From assembly GCA_037446215.1 (NCBI GenBank), contig JBBIJB010000058.1:1-12274 (forward strand): a stretch of 12,274 bases of DNA, read 5' to 3'. Position numbers and translations under genes: made by a program. The DNA is from Armatimonadota bacterium. GTDB taxonomy: Bacteria; Sysuimicrobiota; Sysuimicrobiia; Sysuimicrobiales; Humicultoraceae. The first letter of the stretch is position 1, and each line of letters starts with the position of its first letter. Below are positions 1-12,075 of the stretch, in pieces. Below the pieces are notes generated by a model, which did no database searches, had not been told where the DNA came from, and saw only the letters and a list, made by a program, of their open reading frames with translations.

Positions 1-70
1 TCTCGTCCACCACCCGCTCAATGGTGGCGATCTTGGGAAGGTAGATGTTGTCGGGCTGCTGCGGGCTCAT
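1..70 (-). CDS. 5' fragment of FAD/NAD(P)-binding oxidoreductase subunit (sulfhydrogenase gamma HydG / AsrB-like); runs off the window edge
   Basis: ATG at 70-68 overlaps the TGA of the upstream gene (ATGA). Manual translation gives MSPQQPDNIYLPKIATIERVVDE; the 'N.YLP..A.I..V.DE' start is typical of HydG/AsrB, which normally follows HydB/AsrA. Not in the ORF track. Confidence 0.7.
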   Translation of the reverse strand, partial: MSPQQPDNIYLPKIATIERVVDE

Positions 71-1167
71 CGCGCCTCATTCCTCGCCGTCATCGCTCTT
101 CGGATGATCTCAACAACGCTCGGCATGCCGACGTCACCATGGCAGACCTCAACGCAGCGTCCGCACCCTACGCATGCCACCGACAGCTCGCGCTGAACGA
201 AGTAGTGCGACAGCTTGCGGAAGAACCGCCTGTTCCGCCGGTCGTGAACCGCCTTCCGAGGATTGTGCCCTCCCGCCATCCGGGTGAAGCCGGTGAGCGC
301 GCACGCATCCCACAGCCGTATGCGCTCTGTGATCTCGTCTGTCGTGCTCCGGTCGGTGACCGTGAAGCATGTGCAGGTCGGGCAGACGTAGCTGCAACCG
401 CCGCACTCGAGGCATCGGTTTCCGATCTCCTCCCAGGTCTTCTCGCTCACCTCGCCGAGACTGATCAGGCGGGACGCGACCGAGTACCAACTCGTCACGT
501 CCTTGAAGCGCTTGCGAACCTCGGAGAGCATCTCCCTGCGCCTGGCCACGTGCTCCTCGGTAGCCCTCCGGCATGCCGGGTGCGAAAGCACGGCCTCTCC
601 CGCCGGGGAGCCCGCAACGATCATGTACTCGTCGGCGAGGCGCATGAGCTGGAGGTCGAAGTGCTCCCTGGCAGCCGGGCCTGTGTCGGCGCAGACGCAG
701 AAGCAGTCGTCGTCGATGTCGAGCTCGGTGTCGGTGCAAACCACGTTGACCAGGAATAGGTTCCTGCGGAGCTTCTCGTAGTAGACGTCCCTGTACTCCC
801 TACCGAGAAAGAACCGGTCGAGGTGGCCGATGGCGGCAAGGTCGCAGGAGCGGATGCCGAAGATGGCCACCCTCGGCTCATCCTGCGGCACGTCTATCCG
901 CAGCTGACCTCCGCCGGTTCTCCTTCCCGCGAGTATGGTCCGCCTCGCCGTCAGCAGCCGGTGGATCTGGGGGAGGACGTACCGCTTGGGCGGGTAGTAG
1001 GGGTTCGGCAGGTGGAGCTGCACGCTGTCGCGGTTCGCGTCGGTGACAACGTCGAAGAGCGTGTCGCGGCCCCTACCGAAGAACGGAGCTACGACCTGGT
1101 AGCCGTCCCTGCGGAGGAGATCTACGATCTGCAGCACGTCCGCTCTGTCTATTACTCTCGCCCGCAT
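67..1167 (-). CDS. 4Fe-4S dicluster protein, sulfhydrogenase beta (HydB) / anaerobic sulfite reductase AsrA / FlxB-like family
   Basis: Motifs FGIRSCD, C-x10-CFC, CLECGGCSYVCPTCTCF, WDAC...FTRMAGGHNPR and CVGCGRCVEVC. ATG at 1167 lies just after the upstream stop (1170-1172), with GAGAGGG upstream as a possible SD. Confidence 0.85.
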   Translation of the reverse strand: MRARVIDRADVLQIVDLLRRDGYQVVAPFFGRGRDTLFDVVTDANRDSVQLHLPNPYYPPKRYVLPQIHRLLTARRTILAGRRTGGGQLRIDVPQDEPRVAIFGIRSCDLAAIGHLDRFFLGREYRDVYYEKLRRNLFLVNVVCTDTELDIDDDCFCVCADTGPAAREHFDLQLMRLADEYMIVAGSPAGEAVLSHPACRRATEEHVARRREMLSEVRKRFKDVTSWYSVASRLISLGEVSEKTWEEIGNRCLECGGCSYVCPTCTCFTVTDRSTTDEITERIRLWDACALTGFTRMAGGHNPRKAVHDRRNRRFFRKLSHYFVQRELSVACVGCGRCVEVCHGDVGMPSVVEIIRRAMTARNEAR

Positions 1168-1169
1168 CT

Positions 1170-3206
1170 CTACACCCTCTCGACCCTGGCGCAAATCGGC
1201 CAGTCCGAGCTGCCCCCGGTGCTGTCCGACTCCCCGAAGATCTGGCCGATGACCTCGTGCAGGAAGAAGGGGATGAAGATCATCCCGCGCTTAACGCTGC
1301 CGGTCACGCGGGCGGTGCTCACGGCCGATCCCTTGGAGGTGGAGATCCTGACCTTGCCCGCATCGCGTACCCCGAGCTCCCGCGCATCGTCGGGGTTGAT
1401 ATCCACGAAGCCCTCCGGGTAGTCGAGCTGGAGGACCCGGTGCTCGCGCTTGAGCGTCTCGCTGTGCTGGACGAGCACGTTGTGGTGCCAGTAGTAGAGC
1501 GACCTGCCAATTATCAGGGCGAACGGGTACTCGGCGACCATGCACAGGCCGGCCATCTCCGGCAACGGGAAGGGCGCCAGCCTGAAGGGCTCGTGGGGTT
1601 CTTCCCCCGCGAACAACTGCGCCGTACCTAGGGGCCTGTCTGCCGTACAGGGCCACTGCCGCCCATACTCGCGCGAGAGGTTGTCGTAGCCGGCCGCCTC
1701 GTAGAACGGCACCGCCCGCCTTATCTCGTCCATCACCTGTGAGGATGAGGCGTACGACCACCGTGCGCCCAGCCTGTTCGCGACGCGAACGATCTGGTCC
1801 CAGGCGGGCAGGGGGCCCGGGGGAGGGTCTATGACCTTCTCGGCAATCTGTATGCGGCGCTCGGTGCTGGTGAAGGTCGCCCTCTCTTCCCCGAAGGCCA
1901 CTACCGGCAGGATCACGTCGGCGTGCCGCGCGGTCTCGGTCATGAACAGGTGCTGAACAACCAGGAACTCCAGCTTGTCGAGGGCCTCGACGATAGAGGC
2001 GCGCGCACCGGCCGTTGCGGGATCGTGGCGGTCGATCCACAGGGCACGAACCGAGCCGCTGGCCGCGGCCTCGATCATGCCTCGGGTGCTCAGGCCGGGC
2101 CTGGAGGGAAGGGGCGCCCCCCAGAGGGACTCGAAGCGCCTGCGGGCCGCCGCGTCGCTCACCGGTACATAGCCGGGCAGCCGATAGGGCTGCACTCCGA
2201 CGTCGCAGGTCCCCTGCAGGTTGTTCTGCTCGGCCAGGGGCATTACGCCCGCGCCCCGTTTCCCGATGTTGCCGGTCAGCAACGCCAGGCTCACTATGCT
2301 CCGAATCGTGTCGGCGCCGCGGGCCTCCGCACCGGTGGAGTACATGATCATGCCGCGTCCCCCGGAGGCGAAGGCTATGGCCGCGCTCTCGAGCAGGTCC
2401 GGGGAGATGTCACAGGCATCCGCCACCCACAGGACGTCGTAGGAGTGCACCGATGCGAGAAACTCCTCGTAGTCCTGACAGCGGCTCTTCAGGAACTTGA
2501 GGTCTGCCAGGCCCCGGTCCACGATCACCTTGGCCATCGCGCCGTAGAGCAGCCGGTCGGTCCCGGGCCTCGTCTGAAGGAAGAAGTCGGCGTGCTCGGC
2601 GATCCTGTGCCGCCTGGGATCGATCACGATCAGCTTCGCCCCGCCCATCTTCGCGCGGATCACCCGCCCGCCGATGGTCGGCAGCTGAAGGGCCAGGTCT
2701 ACGCCGTTCACCATGATTACGTCGCTCTGCTCGATATCGGCTATGGAGCAGGTGGCCGCGGGGGCACCCAGCATCTCCATGAGGACCTCTATGCTCGCGG
2801 AGCGATAGGCGCCCATCCCATGATCGACGTTGTTGGTGCCTACCACGGCCCTAGCCAGCTTCTGGAGCAGATAGGCCTCCTCGTTGGAGCAGCGGGGCGA
2901 GTTGACGAAGCCGATCGCGTCGGGGCCGTGCTCGCCGCGAATGTGCTTGAGGCGGGAGGCGATCAGGGTCGTGGCCTCCTCCCAGGACGACTCCTTGAAC
3001 CCGCCCCCATCGCGTATGAGAGGGTGCCTGAGGCGATCCGGTGAGCTGGCGACCTCGTGGACGTTCCAGCCCCGTACGCAGATCCGGCCCTGGTTGGCGG
3101 GGTGGGACATGCTCGGGTAGCCCCCGGTTATCCTGGAGCCGTCCTCCTCTAAGTAGATCCCGCACCCCACGCCACAGAAGGTGCACGTGGTCAGTATGTG
3201 CGCCAT
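1170..3206 (-). CDS. Formate dehydrogenase alpha (FdhF)-like molybdopterin oxidoreductase family protein with degenerate active site
   Basis: N-terminal 4Fe-4S motif CTFCGVGC...ICVRG, plus DRLRHPL, SWEEA, NEEAYLLQKLARAVVGTNNVD, IDPR, RPGTD, DVILP...TFTSTERRIQ and a C-terminal barrel (FVDINPDDARELG). No Tat signal. ATG at 3206 preferred; TTG at 3215 is possible. Confidence 0.85.
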   Translation of the reverse strand: MAHILTTCTFCGVGCGIYLEEDGSRITGGYPSMSHPANQGRICVRGWNVHEVASSPDRLRHPLIRDGGGFKESSWEEATTLIASRLKHIRGEHGPDAIGFVNSPRCSNEEAYLLQKLARAVVGTNNVDHGMGAYRSASIEVLMEMLGAPAATCSIADIEQSDVIMVNGVDLALQLPTIGGRVIRAKMGGAKLIVIDPRRHRIAEHADFFLQTRPGTDRLLYGAMAKVIVDRGLADLKFLKSRCQDYEEFLASVHSYDVLWVADACDISPDLLESAAIAFASGGRGMIMYSTGAEARGADTIRSIVSLALLTGNIGKRGAGVMPLAEQNNLQGTCDVGVQPYRLPGYVPVSDAAARRRFESLWGAPLPSRPGLSTRGMIEAAASGSVRALWIDRHDPATAGARASIVEALDKLEFLVVQHLFMTETARHADVILPVVAFGEERATFTSTERRIQIAEKVIDPPPGPLPAWDQIVRVANRLGARWSYASSSQVMDEIRRAVPFYEAAGYDNLSREYGRQWPCTADRPLGTAQLFAGEEPHEPFRLAPFPLPEMAGLCMVAEYPFALIIGRSLYYWHHNVLVQHSETLKREHRVLQLDYPEGFVDINPDDARELGVRDAGKVRISTSKGSAVSTARVTGSVKRGMIFIPFFLHEVIGQIFGESDSTGGSSDWPICARVERV

Positions 3207-3257
3207 GCTCGCCAACCTCGCAGGTGTTTGTGTGACATCCTCATCCGCCCGCAGCGG

Positions 3258-4182: not shown

Positions 4183-4998
4183 TCAGAACGTCTGGTTCGC
4201 AAGGGCCATCATGCCCAGGGTGTACCGCTCGAGCATGAGGGCCTGCCCCGGGCTGAGACGCACGCAGGCCCACCGCCAGTGGAACGCGAGCAGGTCGCCT
4301 ACCGTGGCGCTCTCCATCTCGGGGTCCGCGTCAAGCGGCCTCAGCACGTGCTCCGGGCGCAGATCGCCGAAGGCCAGGCGCCCGCCGGCGGTGACGATCG
4401 GCCGGTAGGAGACGGTGAATGCCCCCGGGTGAACCGCCGTAATCTCTCCCCAGCTTATCCTGCAGAGGTCGAGCGCGAGATCGCCCTGCGGCAGGCCGGT
4501 CCGACGCGAGACGTCGAAGACGTGGAAGGCGTGGTGTGCACGCGCGCCAGCGGGCGGCTTGCCGACCAGCAGTTCCATGGCGGAGCGGTTCAGTTGACCC
4601 CGGAACCTGTCGCTCAGGTGGCGGGCGTACAGTGCCCAGTCAACTCGCTCCAGGAGGTCGTTGCCTATCCAGTAGGCCTCAACAACGCTGGGGTGAAACG
4701 GGTCCGGTATCCCGCTCGAGTCGGCTATGAGCCGCAGATACGGATAGGCACCTGCGAATGCCCTGAGGTGGCGCCTCAGGGACTCGTCTCCCGATCCCTC
4801 ACGGATGGAGGCCAGCAACTCGGCGTTCGCGTCTCCGCCGCAGTAGCCGAGCCTGTTCGGCATATAGGCGAACCTGGCAAACAGAAGCATGCCCTCCAGC
4901 GGAGAGCCCGAAGGCTCCCCAACGACACCACCAGGTCGTCTTGTTCCCGTGGCGAGGTGTGTACCAGCACGCTTCAAGGATTCGTCTCCGCTTCCCAT
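4183..4998 (-). CDS. DUF6390-like uncharacterised protein (hydrogenase-maturation-associated); start uncertain (4998 or as late as 4890)
   Basis: LFARFAYMPNRLGYCG, FAGAYPYL..IA, DPF...VVEAYWIGN.LL, HHAFHVF, LDLCRISWG and GD....HW.WAC match my recollection of the DUF6390 family. Lies immediately upstream of hypA. Confidence 0.7.
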   Translation of the reverse strand: MGSGDESLKRAGTHLATGTRRPGGVVGEPSGSPLEGMLLFARFAYMPNRLGYCGGDANAELLASIREGSGDESLRRHLRAFAGAYPYLRLIADSSGIPDPFHPSVVEAYWIGNDLLERVDWALYARHLSDRFRGQLNRSAMELLVGKPPAGARAHHAFHVFDVSRRTGLPQGDLALDLCRISWGEITAVHPGAFTVSYRPIVTAGGRLAFGDLRPEHVLRPLDADPEMESATVGDLLAFHWRWACVRLSPGQALMLERYTLGMMALANQTF

Positions 4999-5017: not shown

Positions 5018-5971
5018 CTACATACGGTCGGGGCCCGCCGAGTATCCGTTCATGAGAGGATTCGGGATCGAGGATCGTCCTACGCGAACGGCCGCGGCCT
5101 GCGGCCGCCAGCCCGTCCCGCCGGCATCGGCGGCCGCAGGGTTCAGCCAGATGTCGATGTCCCGGCCCACCGCCATCAGGCCCAGGGTGGTCAGGACGAT
5201 TGCCAGCGCCGGTGGAGCGGCCCACCACAGCCACGCGTCGGTGAGGAACAGCAGCGGATAGCCGAACGCCTGGTGAAGGGTCAGGCCCCAGCTCACGCGC
5301 CCGGGATCTGCCAGGCCCAGCAGCCCCAGCCCGGCCTCCATCACGATCGCCCATCTCAGGGTCAGGAGGAACTTGGTGAAGAGTATGGGCACTATCTCAG
5401 GGAGAATGGCCGTCCTCAATACCCTGGCCTCGGATGCCCCCAGCGCCCGGGCGGCCGCCACGTACTCCTTGGCCGCGGCGGACAGCACCTGGGCGCGAAC
5501 CACGCGCGCATACGCCGCCCAACTGATCACGAGGAGCGCGGCGGCCACCGACCAGATCCCGGGCCCCAGGAACACCACGAGCAGCACTACGAGCGGAACG
5601 CCGGGGATCGCCAGGAAGAGGTCCACCACGGCCAGGACTACCTCGCGCCCTCTAGGGGCCACCGCCGACGCAGCGCCGACCGCGGCGGCAAGGAGCGTGG
5701 AGGAGGCAGCCACCAAGAAACCCACCAGGAGAGAGGTCCTCGCTCCGTGGAGGAGGTGGCTGTAGAGGTCCTGGCCGAGGACATTGGTCCCGAGCAGCAG
5801 GCCGGGCGCCGGCGGCATGACGGGCGAGCCCATCGTGCGATCGGGCGGGTTGTGAGCGAGCAACGGTGCCCCTGCGGCGAGCGCTACCACTGCCAGCAGC
5901 ACGGCCGTCCCTGCTGCCGGCGTAGCGTACCGCCGCCAGAGGCGGGGACCTGTCGATGTCCGATACGTCAC
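5018..5971 (-). CDS. ABC transporter permease, DppC/OppC/NikC type
   Basis: LLGTNVLGQDL...GARTSLLVG, EAA loop YVAAARALGAS, EAGLGLLGL and WLWWAAPP. GTG at 5971 overlaps the upstream TAG. The ORF-track start at 6406 is an over-extension. Confidence 0.9.
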   Translation of the reverse strand: MTYRTSTGPRLWRRYATPAAGTAVLLAVVALAAGAPLLAHNPPDRTMGSPVMPPAPGLLLGTNVLGQDLYSHLLHGARTSLLVGFLVAASSTLLAAAVGAASAVAPRGREVVLAVVDLFLAIPGVPLVVLLVVFLGPGIWSVAAALLVISWAAYARVVRAQVLSAAAKEYVAAARALGASEARVLRTAILPEIVPILFTKFLLTLRWAIVMEAGLGLLGLADPGRVSWGLTLHQAFGYPLLFLTDAWLWWAAPPALAIVLTTLGLMAVGRDIDIWLNPAAADAGGTGWRPQAAAVRVGRSSIPNPLMNGYSAGPDRM

Positions 5972-6933
5972 TACCGTCCCCCTACCCTGGGGTCCAGCCT
6001 CGTGCTTACCAAGTCGAGCAGCGTATTCACCGACAGGACGGCGAGGCTCGAGACAAGGAAGACCCCCTGCATCAGCGGGTAGTCGCGCGCACCTATCGCC
6101 TCGAACAGCAGCGATCCCATGCCGGGGTAGGCGAAGATCCTCTCCACGACGGCCGCGCCGGCCACCGCGGCACCCAACCTCAACCCGAACAGGGTCGCAA
6201 CGGGCGGGAGCGCATTCCTCAAGGCATGCCAAACCACCCGCCCGGCCGGCAGTCCCTTCGCCCGAGCGGTAACCAGGTACCGTTCTCCCATCACGGGGAT
6301 GAGCGCGTTCCGGACCAGCAGGGCAAAGGCAGGGGCGAGCCCGGCCACCAGCGTCAGCCCGGGGAGCGCGGCGTGCCACGCCGCGTCCGCCGCGATGCGC
6401 GCCCACCCGCCGGAATCGATGAAGGGCGTCAACGCGCCACCGGCGGGGAAGATACGGCTCCTCGAGGCAAGCGTCACGATGAGGAGCATGGCGACCAGGA
6501 ACTCGGGCAGGGCTCCCACCCCCACCGATGCGGCCATCGCGGCACGGACGCCGGGGCGGTGGCGGTGCCAGGCCGCGGCCCAGCCCAGCAGACCGCCCAG
6601 GGCTGCGGCGAGGACCACCGCCCCTCCGACGAGGAACAGGGTCCAGGGAAGGCGCTCCGCCACGATCGTGCCGACCGGACGGTGCGATGTTAGAGACCAG
6701 CCCAGGTGGCCTCGAGCCAGCCCGAGGAGGTACCTCTCGAACTGATCGGCAAGGGGAAGATCGAGGTGGTAGGTGTCCACCAGCGCGCGATGCGCCGCTG
6801 CCGGCAGAAGGAGGGCGTCGTCGCCGCCCGGCGTCGCGGGGCTACCGGGCAGCATCCGAGGAACGGCGAAGTTGAGCACCACCACCGTCAACGCGAGCCC
6901 GGCGAAGCGCGCCAGACGCAGCGCCACGGTCAT
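5971..6933 (-). CDS. ABC transporter permease, DppB/OppB/NikB type
   Basis: LNFAVPRMLPGSP, ERLPWTLFL, EAA loop YLVTARAKGL...HALRNAL, VERIFAYPGMG, RDYPLMQG and LDPRV. Confidence 0.93.
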   Translation of the reverse strand: MTVALRLARFAGLALTVVVLNFAVPRMLPGSPATPGGDDALLLPAAAHRALVDTYHLDLPLADQFERYLLGLARGHLGWSLTSHRPVGTIVAERLPWTLFLVGGAVVLAAALGGLLGWAAAWHRHRPGVRAAMAASVGVGALPEFLVAMLLIVTLASRSRIFPAGGALTPFIDSGGWARIAADAAWHAALPGLTLVAGLAPAFALLVRNALIPVMGERYLVTARAKGLPAGRVVWHALRNALPPVATLFGLRLGAAVAGAAVVERIFAYPGMGSLLFEAIGARDYPLMQGVFLVSSLAVLSVNTLLDLVSTRLDPRVGGR

Positions 6934-6941
6934 CGTCCGCC

Positions 6942-8480
6942 CTAGCGGGAGCCTATCAGGGCGAGCTTGTTCTCCACGAGCGGGATCCCGTTCATGATTC
7001 CCCCGGGGACATCCACCGGGCGCAGCCTGCGGCTGTCGTGGACCCAGTAGAACCGGCGATAGTAGAGGGCAAGCGTAGGGAGCTCATCGGCCAGGATCTC
7101 CTGCATCCGCGAGATCAGCGCGCGGCGTGTCCCCGCGTCGACCGATCGCGCCTGCTCGGAGGCCAGCCGCAGGAACTCGGCGTGGTCGAAGCCCGGCGAC
7201 TGCCCGAACAGGTTGGCCTCTCCCCCGGCAAACCACCTTCGGAGGTAGTCGGGATCCCCGCCTGCCCCGATGTGGAAGGTGAGCGCCATCTGGAACTTCC
7301 CCTCCGAGACGAGTGCTGCGCGCGTGCGGGCATCGACGGTCCGGACGGTGACCTCCGTGCCGGCGCGCCTCAGCATCTCTTGTATCGGGACCACCACCGG
7401 AGACGGGCTGGACAGCAATTCCACCTGCGGTGCGCTGTGGCCGGCCGCCATCATGAGGCTCCGTGCCTGAGCCGGGTCGTTGGGATAGCCGCGTACCCGG
7501 GGAGCGTACCACCTGTCGAACGGCGAGACCACGCCGGGATTGCCAGGTATCCCCGGCCCCCGCGTCATCAGGGTGGCGAGCTGAGTCCTGTTGATTGCAT
7601 GTGCGACGGCCCGGCGCGCCTCGCGCCTGTCGAACGGCGGGCGCGAGAGGTTGAAGAGCAGCCGGGCGATCGAGAGCGGCTCGCTCTGCCACACCTTCAA
7701 GAAGGGGTGCGAGGAGAACGCCGGCACCACGTCGTAGGTGTCCGCCATCGCCGCGTCGACCTGACCGTTCTGAGCGGCCAGCACCTGTCGCTCCGTCGGG
7801 ATCATCGTGTACTGAATCTCCGAGAAGAGCGGCCTGCCCCGGAAGTAGCCCGGGTTGGCTCGCAGGCGGTACTCCCCGCTGCCGGGCCGGTATTCGGCCA
7901 GCACATACGGTCCTGTTCCGGCGGCCATCTCAATCGACTGGGCCTTGCGGGGCTCGCGCACCTCCTTCCAGAGGTGCTCAGGCACGATCGGAACCACCCC
8001 GGCGACGTCCTCGATGAAGGGCGCGAACGGGTCCGAGAGGACGAAGGTGACGGTGCGCGCTCCTTCGGCCCTGACAGACTGGACCATGCCCGTGTCTGTC
8101 CAGACGAACGGGTGCTCTCGGTAGTACTCGAATGAGAACTGGACGTCGCGGGCCGTGAAGGGCCTGCCGTCGTGCCACCGTATCCCGGAGCGGAGGACGA
8201 AGGTGTAGCGCCGGCCGTCAGGCGATACCTGCCAGGAGTCGGCCAGCCAGGGGATGGCACCGCCGCGGTCCTTCCACACCAGGGTGTCGTATATGAGCGA
8301 GAGCCGCACGAGTCCTCCGGGACCCAGGGTGGAGGCGGCAAAGGGCGTGGGGAATCCGACATCCGTCCACCATGTCAGGCGGAGCGCACCAGACGGCGTC
8401 TGCCCGGCGGCCACGGAGGCGGCGCACGCGACGGCAAGCAGGATCGAGGCCACGGCGATAAGCGTTCTTGCGCGGGTCAA
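6942..8480 (-). CDS. ABC transporter substrate-binding protein, family 5 (NikA/DppA/OppA-like); nickel uptake inferred from context
   Basis: N-terminal signal peptide, IYDTLV, PWLADSW, LRSGIRWHDGRPFTARDVQFS and GTGPY. TTG start with GGAGGT SD at 8490-8495. Confidence 0.92.
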   Translation of the reverse strand: MTRARTLIAVASILLAVACAASVAAGQTPSGALRLTWWTDVGFPTPFAASTLGPGGLVRLSLIYDTLVWKDRGGAIPWLADSWQVSPDGRRYTFVLRSGIRWHDGRPFTARDVQFSFEYYREHPFVWTDTGMVQSVRAEGARTVTFVLSDPFAPFIEDVAGVVPIVPEHLWKEVREPRKAQSIEMAAGTGPYVLAEYRPGSGEYRLRANPGYFRGRPLFSEIQYTMIPTERQVLAAQNGQVDAAMADTYDVVPAFSSHPFLKVWQSEPLSIARLLFNLSRPPFDRREARRAVAHAINRTQLATLMTRGPGIPGNPGVVSPFDRWYAPRVRGYPNDPAQARSLMMAAGHSAPQVELLSSPSPVVVPIQEMLRRAGTEVTVRTVDARTRAALVSEGKFQMALTFHIGAGGDPDYLRRWFAGGEANLFGQSPGFDHAEFLRLASEQARSVDAGTRRALISRMQEILADELPTLALYYRRFYWVHDSRRLRPVDVPGGIMNGIPLVENKLALIGSR

Positions 8481-9041: not shown

Positions 9042-9767
9042 TCAGCCGATCCTGCCGGGCACCATCCGGCTCCACGCCCTTGAGTAGGTAGCGTAGGGAC
9101 GCCGGCTACGCCTGACGCCCTTCTGCTGCTCCGGGGCGCCGGCCAGGTGCAGGACCGGGAACCCGCGCTCCATCAACACCTCTACCAGATGCAGCGGGTA
9201 GGGAGCGTCCACGCGCACCACCGCCAAGACGCGTCCGTCCCGCCTGTAGGTTGCCAACGACGTCAGGGCTATGCCGGCGGAGTCCACGACGGAGGCCATC
9301 GCCGCGATGGGGCTGGCCTGACCCGACAGGTCTACCACCAGCCGTGTCCCGCCCTGGCGAAGCCCGGTCAGCTCTATGAACGCCTCGAAGAGGTCGCTCT
9401 CCGTGATGATGCCCACGAGGGAGCGCCCTTCGATCACGGGCAGCGCACCGATCTTGTCCCTTCGCATTATCACCGCGGCGGCCTCGATCGGAGCATCGGG
9501 TCCGATGGTCACCGGATCCGGCGTCATGAGATCGCCCGCGGTGGCCTCCATCAGCGCCTCTGGGACCTCGAACTCAACCGGACCCGAGGCGCCCGGGGGG
9601 TGCGCCCTCATCAGATCCGTCCAGGTCGCGATGCCTGCCAGTCGCTTCCTTCTCATCACTGGAAGCCTTCGAATCCCGTGCCTGCGCATGGCCGCTACCG
9701 CGTCGGCCAGCGTGGCCGTCGATTCGACCGTGACAACCGGATGGGTCATCCGGTCGCGGACAAGCAT
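9042..9767 (-). CDS. CBS-domain pair plus ACT-like domain protein (AcuB-like)
   Basis: MLVRDRMTHPVVTV, IRRLPV, MTPDPVTI, KIGALPV...LVGIITESDLF, followed by GTRLVVDL (ACT-like region). The last ~25 aa look like a non-conserved tail. Confidence 0.88.
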   Translation of the reverse strand: MLVRDRMTHPVVTVESTATLADAVAAMRRHGIRRLPVMRRKRLAGIATWTDLMRAHPPGASGPVEFEVPEALMEATAGDLMTPDPVTIGPDAPIEAAAVIMRRDKIGALPVIEGRSLVGIITESDLFEAFIELTGLRQGGTRLVVDLSGQASPIAAMASVVDSAGIALTSLATYRRDGRVLAVVRVDAPYPLHLVEVLMERGFPVLHLAGAPEQQKGVRRSRRPYATYSRAWSRMVPGRIG

Positions 9768-9786
9768 CGTCAGCGCACCCCGTCTC

Positions 9787-10290
9787 CTAGTCGTGTCCCA
9801 TCTGGTCGCCCAGCGCCAGCGCGTTCAGCGCCTCGCGATCCGACAGGTGGCGATGCAGAAGCGCGCAGTAGATCTCCTCTTCCTTTCGCCAGTGAACCTC
9901 GACCAGGGCCTTGACCTGGTACCCCAGGATCCTGGCGGCATCGATCAGTTCGGGGTCGCGCTCGCCTCCCTCGATCCTGCGGACCAGCCCGGAGAACACC
10001 TCCACACGCGCGACTATCTCGCGGTGATCGGCAAGCATGCACGCGTTCGGATCGCCGTGGCGCCTGAGGAGATCGGCGAGGGCCGGATAGAACGTGAGCT
10101 CCTCCCACTCCGCATGGGGCAGGAGGATCCTCTGGAAGAAGCTGTCGGTCTGTGCGAGTGGGCCTGTCAGCGCCGGGTCCGCGTCACCGCGCAACCTGTC
10201 GAGGAGCTCGGTCAGAGCCGTGAGCCCCGCGTCCAGCTGGGAGTGCTCACGCCTGTATGACTCGAGGAGCTTTTCCTTTGCGCTCTCCAT
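9787..10290 (-). CDS. Hemerythrin-like / HHE cation-binding domain protein
   Basis: H...HxxxE...H...HxxxE pattern: RREH, PHAEWEE.TFYP, MLADH, VHWRKEE. Confidence 0.85.
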   Translation of the reverse strand: MESAKEKLLESYRREHSQLDAGLTALTELLDRLRGDADPALTGPLAQTDSFFQRILLPHAEWEELTFYPALADLLRRHGDPNACMLADHREIVARVEVFSGLVRRIEGGERDPELIDAARILGYQVKALVEVHWRKEEEIYCALLHRHLSDREALNALALGDQMGHD

Positions 10291-10329
10291 CGTTTGCTAC
10301 CCCGCCGCCCGAGGCAGGCCGGCACCCTC

Positions 10330-10358
10330 ATCCTAGATCCGCGAGGAGGGCGTGCCAT
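10330..10358 (-). promoter_or_regulatory. Possible sigma70-type promoter for the hemerythrin-CBS genes
   Basis: Minus strand ATGGCA (10358-10353) - N17 - TAGGAT (10335-10330), in the 101 bp gap upstream of the hemerythrin ATG. Confidence 0.3.
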
Positions 10359-10391
10359 CGGGTAGGGGACCTATTCTGCGCTGCCGCGCAC

Positions 10392-10841
10392 CTACGCTGC
10401 TGAGGTGTGGCGCCGGATCAGCACCCAGGCCATGGGTAGAAGGAGCAGCCAGAGGGCGGCGCTGGCCGCGCACAGGGCGCACACCGCCCGCAGGACCGCG
10501 ACCTGGAGCCAGATCAGGTAGAGGGAGAACGAGGCGCCGAACAGGCAGAGGCCGAACAGCGCCGTCGTGATCCACGGCCTGGGAGCGCCCCGCAAGCCCG
10601 CCGCGAAGAGCGGCGCAACAACCAGGTAGAGGAGCAGACCCCAGGCCGCGGTCGGAAGACCCAGGAATCGCGAGTACCGGCTCGCCGCCACCTCGGCGCA
10701 CGCTCCGACAAGACAGACCGGAGGCAGGGCCTGGTAGGCGGAGACGGTTAGGTAGCCCGACACGCCGATCCCGACCAGTGCCAGCGCCAGCCCAACACCC
10801 CACGGCCCGCCTGCCCCGGCGAGAGACGGTTCCCGTCTCAT
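10392..10841 (-). CDS. Vitamin K epoxide reductase (VKOR) family membrane protein
   Basis: Four hydrophobic segments, loop cysteines CLVGAC, V..S.YS.FLGLP and active-site CALC. ATG at 10841 follows the DsbA-family stop (10843-10845) with a 1 nt gap. Confidence 0.92.
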   Translation of the reverse strand: MRREPSLAGAGGPWGVGLALALVGIGVSGYLTVSAYQALPPVCLVGACAEVAASRYSRFLGLPTAAWGLLLYLVVAPLFAAGLRGAPRPWITTALFGLCLFGASFSLYLIWLQVAVLRAVCALCAASAALWLLLLPMAWVLIRRHTSAA

Positions 10842-10842
10842 G

Positions 10843-11505
10843 CTAGCGGCGGCGCGCGGACTCGATCGCCTCACGGAAGACCTCAACCGGCTGTGCGCCG
10901 ACCAGGTACTGCCCGTCCACGAAGCTCGTCGGGGTTCCCCTCACGCCCAGGCGGACTCCCAGATCGAGGTCTGCCTGTACGCGTTGGCGCGTCTGCCCCG
11001 TGCGCAGGCACTGGGCAAACCGCGCCGTCTCCAAACCGACTTCCTTCGCCGCGGAGTCCAGGTCCCCGGAGCCCCTCAACTCCCCGCGTGACAGCCGGGC
11101 GAAGAGCGCGTCATGATAGGCCCAGAACCGCCTCTGATCCGCGGCGCACTCGCTGGCCTCGGCCGCCTGCTCCGAGACCGGTCCCAGAACCGGGAAGTTC
11201 CTGTAGACTATGCGCACGGTTCCCTTGTCCACGAACTCCGAGACGATCTTCGGCTTTATAAGCAGGGCCAGATCGCCGCAGTACTTGCAGCGGAAGTCCG
11301 AGAAGACCTCGATCGTAACCGGCGCGTCGGGACTCCCAAGCTCCTTCCCACCCGCCTCGGGCTTGGTCTGCACAGGCGCGACCGCTGCGGGAGGCTTGGA
11401 GGTCACCCAGTGGATGGCCACCGCGGCCGCGGCTGTCGCGATGGCAACGAGGGCGACTATCAGGGGAAGCGAAGGCCTGGCGCTTGGCTTTGAGCGCCGC
11501 TTCAC
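10843..11505 (-). CDS. DsbA-family thioredoxin-fold protein with N-terminal membrane anchor
   Basis: GSPDAPVTIEVFSDFRCKYC (CxxC), YRNFP, ASECAADQ..FW.YHD.LF and cis-Pro loop GVRGTPT. GTG overlaps the usp stop (GTGA). Confidence 0.92.
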   Translation of the reverse strand: MKRRSKPSARPSLPLIVALVAIATAAAAVAIHWVTSKPPAAVAPVQTKPEAGGKELGSPDAPVTIEVFSDFRCKYCGDLALLIKPKIVSEFVDKGTVRIVYRNFPVLGPVSEQAAEASECAADQRRFWAYHDALFARLSRGELRGSGDLDSAAKEVGLETARFAQCLRTGQTRQRVQADLDLGVRLGVRGTPTSFVDGQYLVGAQPVEVFREAIESARRR

Positions 11506-11957
11506 TGCGGCCGCACCGACCGGACCGTGAAGACGGGCATGGGCGCATGCCTGATTATGTGCTCGGCGACGCTGCCGAACAGCAGGTGGGCGAGGCCGGT
11601 ACGCCCGTGGGTGCCCATCACGATGAGGCCGGCGCCCAGCTCCTGGGCAACGGCAAGGATCTCCTGGCGCGGTGTGCCCTCACGGACCATGGGGCTAGCC
11701 GCGGGGATCCGGGCGGCGAGCCGGGCCATCTCCGAGCGGGCCTCTCCGCGCATCTCCTCGAGCAGAACCTCGGGCGGCGGCGGCGCGAGCACTCCCCCAG
11801 GCCCCCCGACGATCGCGCTCACCGAGGTGTCCAGCACGTGCAGCAGGTAGATCTTTGCGCCAAACGCCCCGGAGAGAGCCTCAGCCCACTCGGCGGCCGC
11901 CTCGGACCCGGCTGAGAAGTCCACCGGCACGAGGATCGTCTGGATTCGTGGTGGCAT
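11502..11957 (-). CDS. Universal stress protein (UspA family, single domain)
   Basis: ILVPVDFS, LLHV and LIVMGTHGRTGLAHLLFGSVAE (ATP-binding type motif). AGGAGG SD at 11965-11970, 7 nt before the ATG at 11957. Confidence 0.95.
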   Translation of the reverse strand: MPPRIQTILVPVDFSAGSEAAAEWAEALSGAFGAKIYLLHVLDTSVSAIVGGPGGVLAPPPPEVLLEEMRGEARSEMARLAARIPAASPMVREGTPRQEILAVAQELGAGLIVMGTHGRTGLAHLLFGSVAEHIIRHAPMPVFTVRSVRPQ

Positions 11958-12075
11958 GCCTGTGCCTCCTTCGCTGTCACTCTGCACCCCTTCAGACCCA
12001 AGGCAATGATACCCGACAGCGCGCCGCTGGCAAGCCCGCCGATCCGCCCGGGCTGGCCCCGGGAGCGGCGCGGCA

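Follow-up and report, generated by a model that had tools for sequence, protein, structure and literature searches.

A formate dehydrogenase-like protein without the catalytic residue set in a group 4 [NiFe] hydrogenase operon of an Armatimonadota bacterium

Formate dehydrogenase (FDH or Fdh)-like proteins without the cysteine or selenocysteine (Sec) of the metal site have already been noted in silico beside group 4 [NiFe] hydrogenases. According to Takano et al. 2026 (Front Microbiol, PMC13582414), who devote one paragraph to this, roughly every second Fdh sequence of Group 4b clusters has neither Cys nor Sec, and the clusters concerned carry homologues of the beta and gamma subunits of sulfhydrogenase I (SHI). 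In their AlphaFold models the branches of the iron-sulfur network lead to three proteins, namely the large subunit, SHI-gamma and the Fdh-like protein, and confurcation with an unidentified substrate is suggested. Here we describe FdhL, a member of this group from an Armatimonadota bacterium (assembly GCA_037446215.1, 2.16 Mb in 149 contigs). The window, i.e. the whole stretch of DNA analysed, comprises the first 12,274 bases of contig C58 (JBBIJB010000058.1). The fdhL operon has in common with the clusters of Takano et al. the Cys/Sec-less Fdh-like gene, the homologues of the Pyrococcus furiosus sulfhydrogenase I beta and gamma subunits and the group 4 large subunit, and the hosts named by these authors include Armatimonadota and Methylomirabilota. 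It is very probably the same kind of cluster, the 4b subgroup being their label. The other lost residues, the family-wide conservation and the absence of the cofactor pathway from hosts are not reported in that paragraph. The readings differ, too: Takano et al. propose a third substrate, whereas we favour a cofactor-free subunit.

A similar gene content was described by Matheus Carnevali et al. for Saganbacteria RX5A (bioRxiv 10.1101/328856, PMC6349859). There, an 'enigmatic' group 4 region combines an unclassifiable molybdopterin oxidoreductase with asrA and asrB, and the authors assign no function to it. The non-FDH molybdopterin oxidoreductase, the AsrA/AsrB-like proteins and the group 4 hydrogenase are shared, a likeness by gene content only; unlike the fdhL operon, the RX5A region also has cooF. 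A Methylocystis preprint calls group 4f, which may or may not be related to the fdhL operon, 'uncharacterised' and formate-coupled. In a study of peat Acidobacteria an fdhF-hyf operon, possibly of the FdhL type, is labelled formate hydrogenlyase. Full-text literature searches yielded no biochemical study of the FdhL family.

The gene and the sites discussed here are the following:

1170..3206, minus strand: fdhL, encoding an FdhF-like protein of 678 aa with the domains Molybdop_Fe4S4, Molybdopterin and Molydop_binding, without the Sec/Cys-His-Arg set
3078..3185, minus strand: N-terminal [4Fe-4S] motif, C11/C14/C18/C46 (P0001 numbering, counted from 3215), Cys kept in 198-199 of 200 family sequences
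3072..3074, minus strand: Arg48, where FdhF has Lys44; an Arg throughout the family (200 of 200)
2802..2807, minus strand: Tyr137-Arg138 (TAT CGC) at the positions of FdhF Sec140-His141, from alignment and codon reading
2211..2240, minus strand: PLAEQNNLQG loop with Ala328 for FdhF Arg333 and the invariant Glu329 for Gly334, from alignment

A preliminary description of this DNA, made from the letters alone, had called the open reading frame (ORF) intact and full length. Indeed, the frame 1170..3215 on the minus strand is open throughout, and the start of fdhL at the ATG at 3206 is indicated by homologues of 678 aa, one of them 100% identical. The Pfam domains Molybdop_Fe4S4, Molybdopterin and Molydop_binding score 51, 200 and 52.7 bits, all above their cut-offs, and by its fold FdhL is a member of the Mo/W-bis-pyranopterin (dimethyl sulfoxide reductase) superfamily. 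An AlphaFold2 model calculated from a 28-row alignment (mean predicted local distance difference test score, pLDDT, 74.8; predicted template modelling score 0.78) shows the FDH fold in Foldseek, with template modelling scores of 0.82-0.83 to FdhF, ForCE and FdsA. The best NCBIfam model is that of the FDH alpha subunit, TIGR01591, with 587.7 bits under a cut-off of 666.25.

In phmmer searches against the Protein Data Bank, FdhL aligns end-to-end with the alpha subunit of F420-dependent FDH, FdhF of the hydrogen-dependent CO2 reductase, ForCE/YjgC, FdsA and E. coli FdhF. GTNNVDHGMGAYRSAS stands opposite the NNVDHCARL(U/C)H motif of the solved FDHs, NNVDHGMGAYRSAS being the FdhL segment that faces this motif in the FDH structure alignments, and PLAEQNNLQG is aligned to their PLRGQNNVQG. 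The residue equivalences come from a MAFFT alignment that included E. coli FdhF as encoded in NC_000913.3; it places Tyr137 at U140, Arg138 at H141, Ala328 at R333, Glu329 at G334 and Arg48 at K44; the codon of Tyr137 at 2807-2805 is TAT. Both methods thus recover the exchange of Cys/Sec for Tyr and of His for Arg and the loss of Arg that had been claimed before, and the four cysteines of the N-terminal 4Fe-4S cluster (C11, C14, C18 and C46) are present as claimed, too. The same applies for the pyranopterin-contact motifs, where every listed change is visible against the consensus of 74 catalytically complete FDH representatives: G.N..e.HP reads GVDLALQLP, Genp reads RHDP, VQDiF reads VQHLF, pfH reads PFF, and gmGiTqH reads STGAE with a 3-residue deletion. 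The TERRIQ motif common to FDHs is kept in FdhL. FdhL is not an FDH alpha subunit in the sense of TIGR01591: the ligand, His141 and Arg333, Lys44 and the required model score are all missing.

An alpha subunit of the canonical NAD-type FDH is encoded elsewhere in the same genome, on contig C61 (L009:631-1983, plus strand), with an in-frame TGA (selenocysteine) at CARLUH and the CTKG motif. This FDH alpha gene, which comes after a NuoF-like gene, is truncated by the end of the contig, and a separate NuoG is found on contig C37. Together with the absence of the catalytic set from the whole family (200 of 200 sequences), this agrees with the earlier statement that FdhL is not a formate dehydrogenase.

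A word-indexed search yielded 5,658 proteins at E <= 1e-50 among 8,000 candidates scored. The best 120 matches are all full length and at least 58% identical to FdhL, and the hosts named among them are Armatimonadota, Omnitrophica, Verrucomicrobia, Methylomirabilis and NC10. Databases list proteins of this family as formate dehydrogenase, F420-FDH alpha or YjgC. By a scan of one genome per species 234 stretches encoding an FdhL relative were detected, 80 of which were kept as loci; here, Acidobacteriota, Thermodesulfobacteriota, Planctomycetota and Lentisphaerota appear as further hosts. The nearest locus (L011), from an Armatimonadota metagenome-assembled genome, encodes a protein with 89% identity and has the same flanking genes. 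At identities of 55-62%, across at least seven phylum-level labels, the same substitutions are fixed.

In the family alignment (n=200: the query, 80 sequences from the loci and 119 proteins, duplicates left in) the ligand position of FdhF U140 is occupied by Y in 171 sequences, H in 17 and F in 12, and Cys or Sec in 0/200. The position of H141 is far more variable (C 94, R 57, S 25, G 8, A 7, T 6, H 2, V 1). At the position of R333 we found T in 140, A in 38, S in 14, N in 6 and C in 2 sequences, and Arg in 0/200. Glu329, Asn331, Asn332 and Arg48 are each present in 200/200. The ratio of nonsynonymous to synonymous substitution rates (dN/dS) is 0.09-0.17 in seven family pairs with dS <0.6. A check on conserved substitutions and dN/dS in homologues, as the preliminary description had proposed, hence came out in favour of a maintained protein. 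Its counter-case, close homologues that all have Cys-His at the site and a lineage-specific decay of fdhL, is contradicted by homologues without Cys-His.

An exhaustive search of cluster representatives showed that the family corresponds to about one 50% cluster. Outside it the nearest sequences share 46% and 39% identity, and ordinary FDHs come next with 31-42%. FastTree, run on 185 sequences, gives a monophyletic FdhL family (support 1.0) nested in a clade of 59 tips, all without the ligand Cys (support 0.968). This clade adjoins complete FDHs including E. coli FdhF, with weak joining nodes (0.50 and 0.62); FdhL groups with FDHs, not with NuoG.

Near the FdhL family, 55 of 142 FDH-like cluster representatives have no ligand Cys, many of them 870-940 aa long with N-terminal extensions (e.g. 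P0125, P0129, P0134, P0137, P0138, P0141, P0143 and P0178). FDH-like proteins without the Cys thus form a wide, largely unstudied radiation that extends beyond the FdhL family.

Using the 142 cluster representatives of at least 600 aa, the position of K44 was compared between groups. Lys is present in all 74 representatives with the full Cys/Sec-His-Arg set, whereas the 55 Cys-less ones have K in 29, R in 20 and other residues in 6 cases; in E. coli NuoG it is Arg. Among 65 columns with at least 90% conservation in the 74 FDHs, the FdhL family keeps 46 and changes 19 (FdhF numbering: 44, 136, 138, 140, 141, 181, 331, 333, 334, 335, 338, 402, 453, 478, 581, 655, 662, 670 and 679). The family's own replacements at these columns are usually conserved, too. 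Of the 19 changed columns, E. coli NapA, an enzyme with bis-molybdopterin guanine dinucleotide and another substrate, keeps 12 and E. coli NuoG keeps 1, a comparison that is suggestive in view of the divergence discussed below.

Compared with E. coli FdhF (1FDO/1AA6, 7Z0T), FdhL has the same size and fold (about 31% identity, phmmer E 1e-108) and the N-terminal 4Fe-4S cluster, and, as with FdhF in formate hydrogenlyase, a ferredoxin-type subunit is predicted to link it to a group 4 hydrogenase. It differs by the replacement of Sec140, His141, Arg333 and Lys44 and by the 19 of 65 changed columns, and the operon differs from formate hydrogenlyase in having a HydB/HydG-like module for reduced nicotinamide adenine dinucleotide (phosphate), NAD(P)H, where HycB stands. 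The C-terminal domain of NuoG/Nqo3 is, like FdhL, derived from FDH, without catalytic residues and with the 4Fe-4S cluster kept; its place is the NAD(P)H-oxidising arm of respiratory complex I, which is related to group 4 hydrogenases. FdhL and NuoG both have Arg where FdhF has Lys44, an Asp within the GxN motif and the deletion in the GMGxTQH loop. Unlike the NuoG domain, FdhL is a polypeptide of its own, and it has none of the N-terminal 2Fe-2S/4Fe-4S domains (N1b, N4, N5) of NuoG. Against the NuoG model TIGR01973 it reaches 132 bits (cut-off 470), with the C-terminal part alone aligning, and it is nearer to true FDHs, keeping 46 of the 65 invariant columns versus 24 in NuoG. ActB of alternative complex III and QrcB belong to the same superfamily and are named as cofactor-less electron-transfer subunits. 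ActB/QrcB-like proteins persist in the same genomes without cofactor pathway as FdhL, but their sequences are remote from it, and they are periplasmic proteins of quinone-linked complexes.

The neighbours of fdhL in the window are hydrogenase genes:

67..1167, minus strand: hydB/asrA-like iron-sulfur subunit, 366 aa, sulfhydrogenase beta homologue, directly downstream of fdhL
1..70, minus strand: 5' end of a hydG/asrB-like subunit binding flavin adenine dinucleotide (FAD) and NAD(P)H, its ATG overlapping the hydB stop; runs off the contig start
3258..3926, minus strand: hypB, hydrogenase nickel-insertion GTPase (TIGR00073 241.8 bits, above cut-off), directly upstream of fdhL

In L011 the gene cut at the contig start encodes a sulfhydrogenase-gamma/AsrB-like FAD/NAD(P)-binding protein. 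The HydB-like protein scores 138 and 133 bits with the ShyB/HydB models and the HydG-like protein 214 and 208 bits with the HydG/ShyC models, under the equivalog cut-offs in each case. In this assembly the remaining operon is located on another contig, C80, and L011 has it together with fdhL on a single contig. It encodes, in this order, a HycI-type maturation protease, a HyfB/NuoL-like antiporter subunit, a fused NuoC/NuoD-like [NiFe] large subunit, a NuoH-like, a HycF/NuoI-like and a NuoB/HycG-like protein. The order of the nine genes is thus fdh-like, hydB/asrA-like, hydG/asrB-like, hycI, hyfB-like, NiFe large, nuoH-like, hycF-like and nuoB-like. The large subunit keeps both Ni-binding CxxC motifs (RICGICGSVH and DPCFSCTDR). 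Neither L011 nor C80 shows a HycB-type gene in the operon. Over the 80 loci the gene order hardly changes; counting those with enough DNA, the genes were found after fdhL as follows, the misses being partly due to distance windows and the 40% coverage filter:

HydB-like: 77 of 77 loci
HydG-like: 76 of 76 loci
HyfB-like: 70 of 75 loci
NiFe large subunit: 63 of 73 loci
NuoH-like: 67 of 69 loci
HycF-like: 66 of 67 loci
NuoB-like: 59 of 67 loci

The hycI protease gene sits between hydG and hyfB.

Genes for the biosynthesis of the pterin cofactor are missing in part of the hosts. In the first 50 host genomes we detected MoaC in 35, MoeA_N in 38, MoaE in 36 and MoaA (E <1e-40) in 36, and the pattern of the four genes is bimodal: all four are present in 33 genomes, one to three in 7 and none in 10. 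The 40 genomes with at least one gene have 15 of 160 slots empty (9%), so that ten complete blanks are not predicted by random incompleteness; RecA was detected in 10/10 blank genomes tested. Of the other 30 genomes 15 contain MoaC, and 12 of the 15 MoaC-negative ones, in which the other genes were searched, have no MoeA_N, MoaE and MoaA either. Altogether, 22 of 80 host genomes are without any of the four genes. In 19 of these 22 the PF00384 matches besides FdhL are NuoG and weak ActB/QrcB-like proteins only, the NuoG matches being 48-78% identical to a protein with NuoG as its best NCBIfam model (433 bits; cut-off 470). By record title these 19 comprise 17 Verrucomicrobiota, 1 Chthonomonadaceae and 1 Lentisphaerota. 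The dN/dS values in genomes without the pathway are 0.088 (L033/L043) and 0.108 (L074/L078). The retention of FdhL under purifying selection in hosts without the cofactor pathway is what the present analysis adds to the description by Takano et al.

MobA was searched with PF12804 in ten genomes and gave 6-14 matches in each, the family being too generic. Strong MobA-like NTP_transf_3 matches are G050:C3:60076-60561 (99.2 bits) and G035:C76:6119-6520 (109.7 bits), in two genomes both without MoaA, MoaC, MoaE and MoeA.

For a complex of FdhL (residues 4-681) and the HydB-like protein (trimmed to residues 50-366), each given as an alignment, a score of 0.84 was predicted versus 0.00 for the best of three controls. 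Among solved complexes 116 of 157 attain the mark for this score, among mismatched pairs 2 of 215; the counts are only roughly valid here because our own alignments were used. Three runs agreed in at least 96% of the contacts, with partner pLDDT of at least 80. The predicted interface brings FdhL residues 43-47 and 50, flanking Cys46, together with residues 250-261 and 340-345 of the HydB-like protein, stretches that hold C252/C255/C258 and C342. This would be the geometry expected for electron transfer from cluster to cluster.

The favoured reading, to which we give a probability of roughly 0.6, is that FdhL is a molybdenum-free iron-sulfur subunit of an NAD(P)H-linked group 4 hydrogenase, analogous to the C-terminal domain of NuoG. 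From the sequence it is well supported that FdhL no longer oxidises formate, and it most likely lacks the Mo/W-bis-pyranopterin cofactor. The preliminary description had offered two options, a NuoG-like scaffold or an enzyme with an unusual ligand set. The operon context, the 22 of 80 hosts without cofactor genes and the change from Lys44 to Arg as in E. coli NuoG favour the former, and the invariant pocket leaves the latter standing.

FdhL, with its single [4Fe-4S] cluster kept, would then be present in stoichiometric amount in a group 4 [NiFe] hydrogenase of the membrane. By homology to sulfhydrogenase gamma and AsrB, the HydG-like subunit may exchange electrons with NAD(P)H via FAD and a [2Fe-2S] cluster. 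The HydB-like subunit, in the place of HycB, would wire it to the HycF-like and NuoB-like subunits and then to the NiFe site, and the HyfB-like and NuoH-like membrane subunits would couple the reaction to ion translocation. With its cluster loop predicted to dock on the ferredoxin domain of the HydB-like subunit, FdhL itself might be a cofactor-free structural cap and its cluster a side branch, which we take to resemble the off-pathway cluster N7 of the molybdopterin-like domain of NuoG. Going by standard redox potentials, H2 evolution from NAD(P)H is exergonic at trace H2 as in aerated soil, so that the complex could shed reductant while conserving energy. At high H2 it could operate in reverse.

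Several observations weigh against a cofactor-free FdhL. The Armatimonadota genome itself has MoaC, molybdopterin proteins and the Sec-containing FDH and therefore cannot discriminate in the cofactor question. The pocket replacements R48, G133, E329, N331, N332 and R396 are invariant or nearly so in the family, as would be expected of a preserved binding site no less than of a filled pocket. Of the 19 columns, only 4 and 5 are retained in two distant, presumably genuine molybdoenzymes that this genome encodes, and 8 in its NuoG, so that the column test is confounded by divergence. The confidence of the AlphaFold2 model is low at the iron-sulfur domain (1-57) and at the former active-site loops (135-137 and 329-336). 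As the alpha subunits of solved FDHs bind ferredoxin-type partners similarly, the docking result may partly reflect this likeness. The absence of the pathway rests on possibly incomplete metagenome-assembled genomes, and three of the 22 blank genomes carry apparently real molybdoenzymes: NarG at 1,520 bits in G035, TtrA-like and DMSO-II-like proteins with twin-arginine leaders in G045, and the same match pattern in its close relative G060. These bins are thus incomplete or mixed, and the absence call is accordingly fallible. Finally, the 17 Verrucomicrobiota among the 19 clean genomes mean few independent events.

Alternatively it might be that FdhL is the catalytic or ligand-binding end of a third redox branch, with a remodelled and possibly cofactor-free or differently cofactored pocket, so that H+/H2, NAD(P)+/NAD(P)H and a further substrate are coupled by electron confurcation or bifurcation. 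We regard this as unlikely, though it is to be taken seriously. It was proposed by Takano et al. 2026 in the paragraph mentioned above on the basis of AlphaFold models (PMC13582414), and the invariance of E329, N331, N332 and R48 in 200/200 sequences across phyla, the dN/dS of about 0.1 and the retained TERRIQ motif are consistent with it. However, a strong conservation is equally expected of a structural subunit, a candidate substrate is lacking, and the former ligand position varies (Y/H/F), as does the next one (C, R, S, G, A, T, H, V). Furthermore, in the 22 of 80 hosts without the four cofactor genes the chemistry could not be that of a Mo/W-pterin. A more specific and rather doubtful version is that R48, H132, Y/H/F137, E329, N331, N332 and R396 form a new molybdenum-independent binding or active site in the FDH scaffold, giving this hydrogenase, widespread in soil and peat, a third redox partner. 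If true, this would make the complex an ion-translocating, confurcating NAD(P)H/X:H+ oxidoreductase of an undescribed kind.

It is improbable, in our view, that FdhL is an assembly or regulatory module instead of a permanent electron-transfer subunit, with a cluster that might gate the complex or sense its redox state. The catalytic residues are all gone, and the cluster would be a terminal branch if the model in the cited paragraph of Takano et al. is right. Translational coupling and the fixed order with the structural genes nevertheless suggest a stoichiometric subunit, as does the confidently predicted interface with the HydB-like protein, and the Pfam scan gave no regulatory domain.

Still less credit can be given to FdhL as a working Mo/W enzyme, possibly an FDH, with Tyr or the following Cys as non-canonical ligand. 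The fold and all three Pfam domains are kept, a Cys is found at +1 of the canonical ligand in 94/200 sequences, and the Armatimonadota genome makes the cofactor. But the protein encoded in the window has Arg and not Cys at +1, a position that is unconserved, and the Tyr-Cys variant is present in 15 of the 22 hosts that have none of the four cofactor genes, which argues against the +1 Cys as molybdenum ligand. Moreover, Arg333 and Lys44 are replaced in 200/200 sequences, His at the 141 position is left in 2/200, 12 columns common to FDHs and NapA are changed, and the Fdh-alpha score is under its cut-off.

A decaying relic, i.e. a lineage-specific pseudogene in the making, is hardly credible despite the many lost FDH-invariant residues, and we rejected it in view of the intact frame, the dN/dS of 0.09-0.17, the substitutions fixed family-wide at 55-62% identity over at least seven phylum labels and the conserved operon-head position.

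Counting one genome per species, the operon type is present in at least 234 bacteria from soil, peat, groundwater and hot springs, with Verrucomicrobiota, Acidobacteriota, Methylomirabilota and Armatimonadota among them. Should the Fdh-like subunit be inert, such hosts would not produce H2 from formate via the FdhL complex, which would swap electrons between NAD(P)H and H2 at the membrane, and the fluxes of H2 and formate inferred from metagenomes would change. The FdhL family would also be a living parallel to the gain of the FDH-derived, cofactor-less NuoG domain by complex I.

An Rfam scan of the window gave no match to Moco or NiCo riboswitches at gathering thresholds. Between hypB and ABC permease genes lies a DUF6390 protein gene (4183-4998, minus strand; 197 bits), and a DUF6390-like N-terminal sequence is also found before hypB in locus L012 (3078-3878); the protein may be linked to nickel handling or hydrogenase maturation. 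Further upstream of hypB (5018-8480, minus strand) a family-5 solute-binding protein and two DppB/DppC-like permeases are encoded, in a cluster without ATPase genes that could be a NikABC-like nickel uptake system. The 462-aa ORF of the second permease is over-extended, the L011 counterpart having 288 aa. The region 9042-11987 (minus strand) contains genes for a CBS-pair protein, a hemerythrin-domain protein, VKOR overlapping a DsbA-like thioredoxin, and a universal stress protein. L011 repeats the order of CBS, VKOR and stress protein; the hemerythrin and DsbA-like proteins are not in the L011 ORF list.

Genes for a cyclic nucleotide-binding (cNMP) protein and a second HydB-like protein of 374 aa lie after or before the operon (C80, L091:1-3245, minus strand; L011:20694-21818; L012:5296-9401). 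These probably belong to a cytosolic group 3b hydrogenase, so that two HydB paralogues would lie side by side. On contig C144 (1393-3915, minus strand) another [NiFe] large subunit is encoded by the side of an HdrB-like CCG-domain protein and a maturation protease, which suggests a group 3c-like hydrogenase. In two loci the HydB-like gene contains one in-frame stop each, at codon 170 in L014:9373-10452 and at codon 232 in L032:12042-13112.

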